Positions 45,248-47,687 of a DNA stretch of 64,000 nucleotides are shown here, one piece after another. The stretch's first letter is position 1. Every line of letters begins with the position of its first letter. Origin of the DNA: Escherichia coli (lineage in GTDB: Bacteria; Pseudomonadota; Gammaproteobacteria; Enterobacterales; Enterobacteriaceae). The notes under the pieces were generated by a model that was not told the DNA's origin, made no database searches, and saw nothing but the letters and a program-made list of their open reading frames with translations. The stretch lies in the NCBI RefSeq assembly GCF_003334255.1, contig NZ_QOWU01000015.1; one strand, 5' to 3'. The position numbers were made by a program, and so were the translations under genes.

Positions 45248-46024
45248 ATGTCCGAAACAAAAAACGAACTTGAAGACCTGCTGGAAAAAGCAGCAACTGA
45301 ACCGGCGCACCGCCCGGCCTTTTTCCGTACTCTACTGGAATCCACCGTCTGGGTGCCTGGTACGGCGGCGCAGGGCGAGGCTGTGGTTGAAGATAGCGCG
45401 CTTGATTTACAGCACTGGGAAAAAGAAGACGGCACCAGCGTCATTCCTTTTTTCACCTCGTTAGAAGCACTTCAACAGGCGGTTGAAGACGAACAGGCAT
45501 TTGTCGTAATGCCCGTTCGCACGCTGTTTGAGATGACACTTGGCGAAACGCTCTTCCTTAATGCCAAACTGCCAACCGGTAAAGAATTTATGTCGCGTGA
45601 AATCAGTTTGTTGATTGGTGAAGAGGGAAATCCGCTGAGCAGCCAGGAAATCCTGGAAGGCGGTGAATCGCTGATATTATCGGAAGTCGCAGAGCCGCCA
45701 GCACAAATGATTGATTCACTCACCACCTTATTTAAAACCATTAAGCCGGTGAAGCGTGCTTTTATTTGTTCAATTAAAGAGAACGAAGAGGCACAGCCTA
45801 ATTTACTTATTGGCATTGAAGCCGATGGTGATATCGAAGAAATTATTCAGGCGACGGGAAGTGTAGCGACCGATACATTACCTGGCGATGAACCAATCGA
45901 TATTTGTCAGGTGAAAAAAGGGGAAAAAGGAATTAGCCACTTTATTACCGAACATATTGCGCCATTCTATGAACGTCGCTGGGGTGGTTTTTTGCGTGAC
46001 TTTAAACAGAATCGGATAATCTAA
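45248..46024 (+). CDS. sseB: SseB, enhancer of serine sensitivity (start alternatives: GTG 45239 or ATG 45248)
   Basis: MSETKNELEDLLEKAATEPAHRPAFF...; synteny with sseA. Confidence 0.85.
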   Translation: MSETKNELEDLLEKAATEPAHRPAFFRTLLESTVWVPGTAAQGEAVVEDSALDLQHWEKEDGTSVIPFFTSLEALQQAVEDEQAFVVMPVRTLFEMTLGETLFLNAKLPTGKEFMSREISLLIGEEGNPLSSQEILEGGESLILSEVAEPPAQMIDSLTTLFKTIKPVKRAFICSIKENEEAQPNLLIGIEADGDIEEIIQATGSVATDTLPGDEPIDICQVKKGEKGISHFITEHIAPFYERRWGGFLRDFKQNRII

Positions 46025-46028
46025 AATA

Positions 46029-46047
46029 TGCCGCCCAAAGGGCGGCA
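46029..46047. terminator. Short GC hairpin between the sseB stop and the small ORF stop; possible bidirectional terminator
   Basis: tgccgccc-aaa-gggcggca; U-rich sequence follows on the minus strand. Confidence 0.4.
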
Positions 46048-46054
46048 TTCGGGC

Positions 46055-46180
46055 TTACTTGCTGCTCTGAAGGTTGTTAACCACCAGTAAATTGTCGCCG
46101 GAGAGACTCCGGTTATTATTTACCTCGGTTAACAGCGCACCAGAAACAATAAGTACGATACAAAAGCACCGTATCTTCAT
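46055..46180 (-). CDS. Candidate 41-aa small hydrophobic protein (type I toxin-like; possibly the ryfA/timP class)
   Basis: ATG...TAA ORF translating MKIRCFCIVLIVSGALLTEVNNNRSLSGDNLLVVNNLQSSK; hydrophobic N-terminal 17 residues; not in the supplied ORF track (below its size cut-off). Confidence 0.4.
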   Translation of the reverse strand: MKIRCFCIVLIVSGALLTEVNNNRSLSGDNLLVVNNLQSSK

Positions 46181-46310
46181 TGTGCGGTCCATGCGAAGAC
46201 CGCATCACGACAGCACCACTGGCGATATTGCCGCGATAGCAAGCGCTGTGAAACACCTGCATTTACGGCCACGGAACATCCTTTCCTAAAGCCAGCGCCC
46301 GTTTGCGAGA

Positions 46311-46507
46311 CGGCGGAAAGGGCCGCAGTGGATAATACACTAACAGAACAATAATAACTCTCTTTTGCTTGACAAAAAGAGAGTTACTGGCGAGTATTGT
46401 CTCCGCTGAGACGCGCTTGCATTACTACGGTAATACAACCTGCTGGAAAGGCCGCGAACCGGACCAGCAACAAAAAACCGCCTGATTTTGGCGGTTTTTT
46501 GTTTTTT
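46311..46507 (+). repeat. Direct repeat copy 1 of an sRNA-like module
   Basis: Begins cggcggaaagggccg; contains perfect 9-bp-stem hairpin ctctctttt-gcttgaca-aaaagagag with TTGACA in the loop; ends ccgcc..ggcgg plus T-run. Confidence 0.7.
46404..46507 (+). ncRNA. Candidate ~100-nt sRNA 1 (antitoxin-like); predicted, not verified
   Basis: TTGACA (46369..46374), 17-bp spacer, gagtat (46392..46397); Rho-independent terminator at 46478..46507. Confidence 0.3.
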
Positions 46508-46632
46508 AAAGGAAAGTGAATTTACATGTTTAAGTAATATCTTTTACCGGTTAGAATTTTTAATTTTGAGCAGGATTTGTTTATATTTGTCTGAATTCAG
46601 ACTAATAAGCCAGGTTATTTTATTACCGAACA

Positions 46633-46826
46633 CGGCGGAAAGGGCCGGTGTCGATAATACGCTAAATAAACAATAATTACTCTCTTTTGCTTGACAAAAA
46701 GAGAGTTACTGGTGAGTATTGTTTTGCTGTGAAGCACCTGCGTTGCTCATGTAACACAAGTCAACCTGCTGGAAAGGCCGCGAACCAGACTAGCAATAAA
46801 AAACCGCCAAATTCGGCGGTTTTTTA
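46633..46826 (+). repeat. Direct repeat copy 2 of the same module
   Basis: Same start box, same 9-bp hairpin (46680..46705), same gctggaaaggccgcgaacc box, same terminator type; about 322-bp period. Confidence 0.7.
46726..46826 (+). ncRNA. Candidate ~100-nt sRNA 2 (sibling of sRNA 1); predicted, not verified
   Basis: TTGACA (46691..46696), 17-bp spacer, gagtat (46714..46719); terminator at 46804..46825, which also lies just downstream of sseA on the other strand. Confidence 0.3.
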
Positions 46827-46841
46827 TTGCCTGTAAAATAC

Positions 46842-47687
46842 TTATTTCACTGGCTCAACCGGTAAATCTGCCCGCGCGCCCCATTCACTCCATGCGCCGT
46901 CGTACAGTTTCACGTTTGGCACATCCAGCGTCGCGAGTGCTAACAAAACCACGGCTGCCGTTACACCAGAGCCGCAGCTGACGATAATTGGTTTGTCGTA
47001 GCTGACGCCGCGACCAAAAAATATCGCATCCAGTTCATCGGTCGTTTTTAGTTCGCCTTCGCGCACCAGTTCCGTCCACGGAACATTCAGTGCTCCGGGA
47101 ATATGTCCGCGACGTAAACCTGGGCGAGGTTCATCAACTTCTGCGTTAAAACGTGCAGCCGGGCGGGCATCAATAATTTGCGCCGTATTTTCATGGCTTG
47201 CCAATAATACATCGGTTACTTTCACCACGGCTTCAGGATTAAACGCGGCGTTAAACTCTCCTTCCGGCAGCTCTACTGCACCTTCTTCTAACAGCAGATC
47301 ATCGCGCTGCCAGCCTGCAAGTCCACCCCCCAGAATCGACACTTTCTCTACACCAAAGGTGCGCAGCATCCACCATGCTCGTGGGGCTGAGAAAAGATTA
47401 CCTTCGTCATAGACAATCAGGTGCTTATCCTGGTTAACGCCTAATTCACGCATCGCCACGGCGAACGTTTCCGGGCGCGGCAGCATGTGCGGAAGCGGGG
47501 AAGTGTGATCAGAAAGCGCTTCGATATCAAAAAACACTGCGCCGGGAATATGTCCATTCAGATACTCCTGAGCAACGTTACGATCCTCCTGTCCAGGCGA
47601 CGCCATGCGGGCATCGATAATCTGAATTTCCGGGTCATCAATATGTTCGGCGAGCCAGTCGGCTCCTACAAACCATGTCGTGGACAT
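46842..47687 (-). CDS. sseA: 3-mercaptopyruvate sulfurtransferase (281 aa)
   Basis: MSTTWFVGADWLAEHIDDPEIQIIDARM...; rhodanese catalytic CGSGVTA; track ORF trimmed to the ATG at 47687. Confidence 0.93.
   Translation of the reverse strand: MSTTWFVGADWLAEHIDDPEIQIIDARMASPGQEDRNVAQEYLNGHIPGAVFFDIEALSDHTSPLPHMLPRPETFAVAMRELGVNQDKHLIVYDEGNLFSAPRAWWMLRTFGVEKVSILGGGLAGWQRDDLLLEEGAVELPEGEFNAAFNPEAVVKVTDVLLASHENTAQIIDARPAARFNAEVDEPRPGLRRGHIPGALNVPWTELVREGELKTTDELDAIFFGRGVSYDKPIIVSCGSGVTAAVVLLALATLDVPNVKLYDGAWSEWGARADLPVEPVK

Follow-up and report, generated by a model that had tools for sequence, protein, structure and literature searches.

A probable type I timP (ryfA)/TimR locus, partly duplicated and with two sibling TimR-family sRNAs, between sseB and sseA of Escherichia coli

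Overview

The gap between sseB and sseA in the window (the whole 64,000-nucleotide stretch of Escherichia coli DNA analysed here, from contig NZ_QOWU01000015.1 of assembly GCF_003334255.1) is very probably a type I timP(ryfA)/TimR locus which has been partly duplicated and which carries two sibling TimR-family sRNAs of about 100 nt. The system and its family assignment are already known from the literature and from the annotation of MG1655, and the known picture of the TimR/timP system is unchanged. The observations made here are the repeat in the gap, the family membership of both sRNAs by architecture, the complementarity and co-variation of seed and site, the mosaic make-up of the locus, and the counts in the E. 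coli population. They lead to small additions, namely two TimR genes in K-12-type strains, the identity of ECS011, the scar behind IS128, and the co-variation of alleles within E. coli.

The mechanism of TimR has been shown by others in Salmonella, where TimR represses TimP and relieves its toxicity (PMC7667032, PMC11228461), and the effect of RyfB1 of Shigella was measured as the level of RyfA1 RNA (PMC5333039). Repression of TimP by either sRNA in the source strain would be expected by analogy with these systems. In avian pathogenic E. coli (APEC), deletion of timR had little phenotype, and production of the TimP peptide in E. coli has been questioned (PMC13188913). Deleting the single ‘timR’ of a K-12-type strain, or constructing a ryfA-timR double mutant, leaves one TimR copy behind, which could confound phenotypes. 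The locus is also a tidy example of how the specificity of type I antitoxins diversifies.

Layout of the sseB-sseA gap

Between the end of sseB (46024) and that of the minus-strand sseA (46842) lie 817 bp (46025-46841), with the following features:

46023..46326, minus strand: ryfA RNA, the timP toxin mRNA (304 nt); Rfam RF00126, equivalent to MG1655 b4440
46055..46180, minus strand: timP coding sequence (41 aa, MKIRCFCIVLIVSGALLTEV...); open reading frame annotated as TimP, b4812 in MG1655
46245..46263, minus strand: predicted TimR-binding site on ryfA nt 64-82 in the 5′ UTR, including the hypervariable specificity core; from duplexes and co-variation
46327..46402: divergent promoter region 1; from sequence and inverted repeat, the sRNA promoter agreeing with the ECS011 5′ end
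46337..46332, minus strand: ryfA -10 TATTAT, conserved in position across genera
46355-46386: palindrome of promoter region 1 (12-bp arms); from an inverted-repeat search
46403..46500 (end approximate), plus strand: module 1 sRNA, a TimR paralogue with an ‘a-type’ seed, identical to ECS011/IS129
46501..46618: AT-rich spacer, core of Rfam ‘IS128’ (RF00125), with a palindrome at 46584-46607
46619..46632, plus strand: sseB 3′-end remnant of 14 nt (TTTATTACCGAACA), an exact copy of 45941-45954 in sseB
46633..46725: ryfA 5′ stub (about 16 nt) and promoter region 2; from the D1 repeat
46648..46633, minus strand: the ryfA 5′ stub in module 2 (about 16 nt)
46659..46654, minus strand: intact ryfA-type -10 in promoter region 2
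46679-46706: palindrome of promoter region 2, with TTGACA at 46691-46696
46726..46826, plus strand: module 2 sRNA, annotated timR (b4811), with a ‘b-type’ seed matching the resident ryfA; from the MG1655 annotation

A sequence-only reading of this DNA had already pointed to the 817-bp gap and a direct repeat within it; gene ends and a repeat search show that both are real, the repeat consisting of two blocks. That reading had described two copies of about 195 bp with a period of about 322 bp, which holds for the repeat and its spacing but not for a uniform copy, as two conserved blocks flank a diverged core. Block D1 (46310-46400 versus 46632-46722) is 91 nt long with 90% identity at a spacing of 322, and block D2 (46436-46499 versus 46762-46825) is 64 nt long with 84% identity at a spacing of 326, while the core between them (46401-46435 versus 46723-46761) measures 35-39 nt. 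Matches of the length of D1 and D2 do not arise by chance within 1 kb.

The proposed hairpin with TTGACA in its loop is present in each module and is perfect, its stem being longer than the 9 bp originally given: the arms are 12 nt in module 1 (46355-46366 and 46375-46386) and 10 nt in module 2 (46679-46688 and 46697-46706), both enclosing the same 8-nt loop GCTTGACA with TTGACA at 46369-46374 and 46691-46696. The idea that this hairpin is part of the sRNAs had to be given up: transcription of both RNAs starts downstream of it, and neither contains it, which leaves it as a feature of the DNA in the divergent promoter region. A role of the palindrome as an RNA hairpin or terminator was rejected on the same ground and because it is missing from c-type and d-type promoters and from other genera. 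The terminator scan picks it up on the minus strand.

The -10-like GAGTAT had been placed 17 bp downstream of TTGACA, and this spacing is exact in both modules (46392-46397 and 46714-46719). As the hexamer matches TATAAT at 3 of 6 positions only, the promoter is missing from the promoter-scan list. In module 1 the sequenced ECS011 begins 6 nt downstream of the hexamer (46403) and in module 2 the annotated timR 7 nt downstream of it (46726), and the earlier promoter and terminator calls thus fit the ends of these RNAs. The terminators at 46469-46503 and 46793-46830 have a symmetric build of A-run, GC stem and T-run, in keeping with the bidirectional Rho-independent terminators proposed before, even though the plus-strand terminator scan picked up neither; their assignment rests on sequence and predicted folds. 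On the minus strand, a promoter-like site TTGTCA-16-TATTGT was considered and discarded. Its hexamers are not conserved in other genera, unlike the -10 at 46337..46332, and the annotated ryfA start was therefore kept.

Two further elements had been noted. The box gctggaaaggccgcgaacc (also GCTGGAAAGGCCGCGAACC) common to both modules is found at 46442-46460 and 46768-46786. The 5′ box cggcggaaagggccg occurs at 46311-46325 and 46633-46647, and its description as a near copy of the internal box ggaaaggccgcg applies to GGAAAGG plus CCG and to nothing beyond those letters.

The toxin gene

The sequence-only reading had named ryfA/timP with divergent TimR/RyfB-type sRNAs as a possible identity of the locus and an Rfam search as a way to check it. 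The search places ryfA at 46023-46326 (-) with 315 bits (RF00126, 314.9 bits, E 2.7e-88, full model, against a gathering score of 80), the timR of MG1655 lies on module 2, and the published ECS011 is module 1. For timP, a small open reading frame with a signal-like N-terminus is expected, and ryfA holds one of 41 aa that is annotated as TimP. The gap is 100% identical to that of E. coli G1/2 and 99.8% identical to that of K-12 strains, and a related region is present in all 5426 complete E. coli genomes; the locus is the E. coli K-12-type timP/ryfA locus. The predicted site at ryfA nt 64-82 corresponds to the TimR site on SL2 of Salmonella (PMC11228461, PMC13000454).

Two sRNAs of one family

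Comparison with the annotated genes of MG1655 puts timR exactly on module 2: timR of NC_000913.3 (2653356..2653455, minus strand) maps to 46726-46825 (+) here. The predicted RNA has 100-101 nt, a length taken from the annotation, and ends in a GC stem and U-run. Its terminator lies directly 3′ of the convergent sseA (stop at 46842), and the gene faces away from the remaining promoter and 5′ stub of a ryfA, the intact ryfA beginning about 400 nt away.

Module 1 bears no annotation in either of the two records compared, one of them NC_000913.3, in which one timR only is annotated. ECS011, which starts CCGCUGAGACGCG (CCGCUGAGACGCGCUUGCAUUACUACGG), maps base for base to 46403-46473 (+) within module 1. 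It was detected in K-12 by a strand-specific Northern blot as bands of about 95 and 100 nt, with a probe on the diverged core, and was equated by the authors with IS129 of an earlier screen (PMC3175480). Expression of module 1 in K-12 has thus been shown by published work, and the unannotated sRNA adjoining timP in K-12-type strains is ECS011, a second TimR gene. A literature search found no link of ECS011 to TimR or ryfA. Module 1 starts at 46403, at a distance of 77 nt from the start of the oppositely oriented ryfA (46326). The predicted RNA has 98 nt with a GC stem and U-run, and in its fold an unpaired 5′ seed is followed by SL1, by the conserved hairpin at 46441-46469 and by the terminator.

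The supplementary tables of the 2011 K-12 deep-sequencing study hold an entry for ECS011 and none at module 2. The evidence of expression is thus weaker for the copy that bears the timR annotation. The C0614 interval, which overlaps module 2, has very few reads in the same data, and a literature search returned no transcript record for module 2. A speculative reading of the missing reads is that the better-matched copy is consumed by abundant timP mRNA.

The two modules had been taken for siblings from the outset, and their common fold (z-scores -3.4 and -3.6) and their alignment with TimR homologues bear this out. In both, a TTGACA-17-GAGTAT promoter is followed by an unpaired 5′ seed, a small stem-loop, a second hairpin and a terminator. 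The second hairpin reads UGCUGG-AAAGGCCGCGAACC.GA-C.AGCA in both RNAs, folding as UGCUGG...C(C/U)AGCA. Both modules align with sRNAs of six genera (a 15-sequence alignment from Escherichia, Citrobacter, Superficieibacter, Erwinia, Rahnella and Yersinia), and in every genus aligned the region upstream of ryfA holds a divergent sRNA of the same layout. RNAalifold gives a single consensus structure for these 15 sRNAs, with GC/AU covariation in SL1 and a nearly invariant second hairpin including its loop (AAAGGCCGC..ACC.GA); from Yersinia to Escherichia, the hairpin GCUGG.A.GGCCGC..ACC.GACCAG is nearly unchanged. The conserved fold and alignment identify the box shared by the modules as the 5′ arm and loop of this structural hairpin. 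The homologues came from a degenerate genome-wide pattern scan with 120 hits, most of them chance matches in GC-rich genomes; it yielded 16 enterobacterial loci, of which 10 were aligned and 9 entered the tabulated analyses (one Yersinia locus was left out).

Set against the known properties of TimR/RyfB, both modules are encoded upstream of timP/ryfA in divergent orientation and do not overlap it, each corresponds to a transcript of about 100 nt ending at an intrinsic terminator (for module 2 with the annotated length), their 5′ ends are complementary to the SL2 region with seed and site co-varying, and the hairpin and overall fold are homologous to those of enterobacterial TimR. An Rfam search of the gap gave no family hit above threshold over the module sRNAs.

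The TimR stem GCUGG/CCAGC consists of the same letters as the helix between site 1 and site 3 of the pseudoknot in E. coli ryfA (site positions inferred from the mutations in PMC13000454), which raised the idea of the hairpin as a mimic of the timP pseudoknot. This was rejected, as the sites in ryfA of Yersinia and Rahnella are AUCGG/CCGAU and CCGG/CCGG while the TimR stem is unchanged, and the resemblance is treated as a coincidence.

Seed, site and specificity

In Salmonella, the 5′ end of TimR pairs with the timP 5′ UTR at SL2, 50-60 nt upstream of the ribosome-binding site (PMC7667032, PMC11228461, PMC13000454). The 5′ 40 nt of both sRNAs choose the same target on the resident ryfA, nt ~45-84, with -35.2 kcal/mol for module 1 and -45.2 kcal/mol for module 2. 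Shuffled seeds reach a mean of -26.7 +/- 3.4 kcal/mol, and the observed value was attained by 4 of 300 shuffles for module 1 and by 0 of 300 for module 2. A duplex between the sRNAs and the minus-strand leader, as foreseen in the sequence-only reading, is therefore predicted above the shuffled background for the 5′ core against ryfA nt ~59-84, and not for the boxes. In detail, the seeds pair as follows:

Module 2 seed nt 1-19 with resident (b-type) ryfA nt 82-64: 17 Watson-Crick and 2 G-U pairs, no mismatch (19 bp)
Module 1 seed with resident (b-type) ryfA in the same register: 14 Watson-Crick and 3 G-U pairs, 2 internal mismatches
Module 1 seed with a-type ryfA of other E. coli strains: 17 contiguous Watson-Crick pairs

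The diverged core between the repeat blocks is the seed of each sRNA, and the siblings differ almost only there. Across species and alleles, a hypervariable core of about 8-10 nt in the ryfA site changes jointly with the sRNA seed, the co-varying regions being the diverged 5′ core of each sRNA and ryfA nt ~59-84. In a matrix of 19 seeds against 16 ryfA sequences, the best partner of every seed is the allele with the matching site core, which is the ryfA of its own locus with the exception of orphan copies. This co-variation supports the published TimR-timP pairing by an independent, natural route.

Transferred to this locus, the mechanism would run as follows. The minus-strand ryfA encodes the 41-aa membrane toxin TimP. 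The seed of a TimR would pair with SL2 of the timP 5′ UTR, some 60 nt ahead of the ribosome-binding site as derived from Salmonella, and would thereby block the pseudoknot conformation needed for translation of timP, so that no TimP is made. By sequence, the module 2 seed fits the resident ryfA, and that of module 1 fits the a-type perfectly and the resident one imperfectly.

E. coli seeds and sites fall into alleles labelled a, b, c and d, which occur in several arrangements. Among the 5426 complete E. coli genomes, the counts are:

a-type sRNA seed: 4538 genomes
b-type sRNA seed: 2030 genomes
b-type ryfA site: 1975 genomes
K-12-type spacer and stub junction (at least 80% coverage): 1775 genomes

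Module 1 therefore carries the commonest seed in E. coli, and about one genome in three keeps an a-type sRNA next to a toxin gene of the b-type. The ryfA body has 5598 matches in the 5426 genomes, about 172 above one per genome.

These data bear on the role of module 1 within the duplicated locus. Module 2 might be the sole working antitoxin, with module 1 an expressed but non-cognate orphan of recombination that has no role or a different one; this is a plausible reading, if short of an even chance. The 2 internal mismatches of module 1 against the core of the resident ryfA, set beside its 17 contiguous Watson-Crick pairs with the a-type allele, speak for it, as does S. dysenteriae, in which RyfB1 lowered RyfA1 and not RyfA2, the two differing in a 5-nt variable region of the pairing site (PMC5333039). 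The near-equal genome numbers of b-type seed and b-type site (2030 versus 1975) mean that the two travel together, which points the same way. On the other hand, the full predicted duplexes with the resident ryfA are -38.9 kcal/mol for module 1, well above background, and -42.5 kcal/mol for module 2. A difference of 3.6 kcal/mol only makes the labels cognate and non-cognate soft, and module 1 may also repress. Module 1 is moreover the copy with direct expression evidence in K-12, and the arrangement has been kept in about a third of the complete E. coli genomes.

Alternatively, in the third of E. coli genomes that have this arrangement, module 1 may be a working second TimR of other specificity, be it a back-up, a cross-reacting copy or an orphan ‘immunity’ against a-type timP. 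The a-d alleles may then be compatibility groups reshuffled by recombination at the direct repeats of the locus (5′ box, conserved hairpin, seed versus site). We offer this tentatively and regard it as doubtful in this form.

Origin of the duplication and the IS128 family

The partly duplicated timP/TimR locus can be compared with other arrangements in E. coli:

Strain 442/2: single cognate unit, a/a
O157:H7: single cognate unit, c/c
Strains ST2747 and PKF11: unit plus an extra distal sRNA
Strain 2824: full tandem sseB-timP(b)-TimR(b)-spacer-87-nt sseB fragment-timP(c)-TimR(c)-sseA

Single units are also found in Escherichia sp. E1V33, in E. coli SCPM-O-B-8794 and in Citrobacter, which makes the arrays the derived state. 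Beyond what the sequence-only reading had described, the promoter and 5′ stub of a ryfA are present in module 2. It follows that toxin and antitoxin genes were duplicated in tandem as one unit and that the duplication has since decayed. Strain 2824 has an 87-nt sseB fragment at the position of the 14-nt remnant, followed by a full second timP; since the remnant here directly precedes the ryfA stub and promoter in the same way, the second ryfA of the tandem array was deleted. The spacer is kept in other multi-module E. coli loci.

Difference maps show the locus to be a mosaic. The ryfA body is b-type and does not differ from copy 1 of strain 2824 over 46111-46325. The sequence turns a-type at about ryfA nt 1-24 and stays so through the promoter and module 1, matching 442/2 at every position over 46303-46460; this places the breakpoint between 46302 and 46326. 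Module 2 and the stub are b-type again, 46632-46707 being identical to the promoter region beside the intact b-type ryfA of strain 2824. The pair probably comes from a tandem array of whole sseB′-ryfA-timR units in which the second ryfA was lost.

This history also bears on IS128. The covariance match to RF00125 (46458..46666, minus strand) scores 260.3 bits against a gathering score of 80, and the real gene could accordingly be a long minus-strand RNA (46666..46458) of which the repeats are only the flanks. The intact ryfA-type -10 and 5′ stub of module 2 could start such an RNA, the symmetric terminator of module 1 could end it, and IS128 was differentially expressed in one RNA-seq study. 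However, the match of 260 bits is one to a described sequence and is no evidence of a gene. A strand-specific Northern blot for IS128 was negative, the earlier signal having come from a double-stranded probe, and the authors considered it an artefact or condition-specific (PMC3175480). The family looks like a cover of the duplication scar, made up of the spacer, the sseB remnant and the ryfA stub, and it is missing from most E. coli lineages. A long minus-strand gene is for these reasons quite unlikely.

The contact proposed in the sequence-only reading, in which the internal box GGAAAGGCCGCG of the sRNAs pairs with the 5′ box CGGCCCUUUCCGCCG of minus-strand RNAs (ryfA or IS128-type), fares worst and is highly improbable: the two boxes can form 7 + 4 bp around a single bulge, at predicted energies of -10 to -20 kcal/mol, a 7-nt AAAGGCC/GGCCUUU match exists in Yersinia and Rahnella bruchi, and the loop of the hairpin varies far less than a purely structural role would call for, but in E. 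coli 71 of 300 shuffles for the box, and 90 of 200 and 29 of 200 for the loops at two loci, do as well, half of the box is tied up in the stem of a stable hairpin, the partner position in ryfA varies between C, U and A among species with no compensating change in TimR, the ryfA 5′ box is already paired within ryfA with GGAAAGG at nt 40-46 (Rfam consensus), and mutations in Salmonella place the contact between the 5′ end of TimR and the 5′ UTR of timP (PMC7667032).

Comparison with known systems

The closest counterpart of the duplicated timP/TimR locus is TimR (STnc2070)/timP of Salmonella Typhimurium, which occupies the same sseB-sseA locus, belongs to the ryfA family, has the small timP open reading frame (Andresen 2020, PMC7667032; PMC11228461; PMC13000454) and, as here, an sRNA of about 100 nt divergent from the toxin gene. 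The E. coli locus differs in having two TimR genes for one timP, of which the copy adjoining timP is the less well matched, the matched copy lying about 400 bp from the ryfA 5′ end behind the decayed second unit.

Among the K-12 candidates of earlier screens (Chen 2002, Tjaden 2002, Shinhara 2011, PMC3175480), IS128 is the minus strand of the region between the modules, and C0614 (46643-46729) overlaps the module 2 promoter. Together with ECS011/IS129 they are treated in the papers surveyed as unrelated candidates of unknown function (PMC3175480).

The divergent type I systems dinQ-agrA/agrB, tisB-istR, shoB-ohsC and zorO-orzO of E. coli likewise have an antitoxin sRNA which adjoins the toxin gene without overlap. 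Two repeated sRNA genes flank dinQ, agrB alone being known as an effective antitoxin. The Rfam search found no homology above thresholds to any of the four systems; weak sub-threshold matches to AgrB, OhsC and OrzO-P lie mostly over the module terminators. In contrast to these systems, the timP mRNA is reported to need no processing for activation (PMC11228461).

Shigella dysenteriae carries tandem sibling units, RyfA1/RyfB1 and RyfA2/RyfB2, at the same locus, with differing divergent sRNAs of about 100 nt and a complementarity which overlaps a short variable region that confers specificity, as it appears to here (Fris 2017, PMC5333039). Compared by published description, Shigella keeps both full RyfA, whereas in the present locus the second ryfA is reduced to a stub of about 16 nt and one sRNA stands without an adjacent toxin.

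Promoter regions and transcription signals

Both modules of the sseB-sseA gap, module 2 being the annotated timR, are preceded by a palindrome whose loop carries two overlapping -35-like hexamers in opposite orientations.

Signals and transcript features of the sseB-sseA gap
46028-46048, ryfA terminator, ATGCCGCCCTTTGGGCGGCAT
46355-46386, palindrome, promoter region 1
46369-46374, plus strand, -35-like TTGACA within the palindrome loop
46375..46370, minus strand, -35-like TTGTCA within the palindrome loop
46441-46469, TimR hairpin, module 1
46643-46729, plus strand, C0614, an old microarray candidate (K-12 U00096.2 2651474-2651560)
46679-46706, palindrome, promoter region 2
46767-46795, TimR hairpin, module 2

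Together with TATTGT, the minus-strand TTGTCA gives a 9/12 promoter match. The palindrome is carried by the a-type and b-type promoters alone; c-type and d-type promoters lack it, as do the other genera. A role as an operator, or as a place where promoters compete, is conceivable. C0614 spans the promoter of module 2, reaching 3 nt into timR, and is probably module 2 transcription that was detected at a displaced position; very few reads fall in its interval in the 2011 data set.

Between the modules, in a stretch that overlaps the minus-strand match to the Rfam family IS128, the 161 nt at 46540-46700 share 100% identity with strain 88-3493, 99.4% with BL21 and 98.8% with MG1655. The window strain differs from MG1655, and one base separates the published IS128 probe from the window.

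The terminator of ryfA, the timP toxin mRNA, is symmetric and begins 4 nt past the sseB stop codon, and probably also stops sseB transcription arriving from the opposite side. Its stem at 46034 is one C shorter in the window and K-12 than in most other E. coli strains.

Seed, target and locus rearrangement

In E. coli, the letters of the TimR hairpin stem (GCUGG/CCAGC) are those of the ryfA pseudoknot helix, which is formed by nt ~30-36 (site 1, CGCUGGC) and ~104-110 (site 3, GCCAGUG). Yersinia and Rahnella do not show this resemblance: their ryfA sites co-vary, but the TimR stem does not follow.

On DNA, the TimR seed and its ryfA target are a direct repeat of ~20 bp, so the pair can serve as a deletion substrate. 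In E. coli 06-00048 (L006, locus ~1750-3280) a c-type TimR body is joined straight to ryfA at this site/seed repeat, so that both promoters are lost along with the 5' end of ryfA; an IS3-family element interrupts the terminator.

A fourth seed type, d (GACGAGAUACACUUGCA), occurs in E. coli GPEC874 (L008) and in ST2747 and PKF11 (L003/L004). The d-type sRNA lacks the first stem-loop, and the sequence upstream of its promoter is different and without the ryfA stub. The GPEC874 locus, which has an IS200/IS605 transposase gene at the expected sseA position, combines a d-type ryfA site with an adjoining b-like sRNA and a distal d-type sRNA; as in K-12, the sRNA that matches ryfA is the distal copy.
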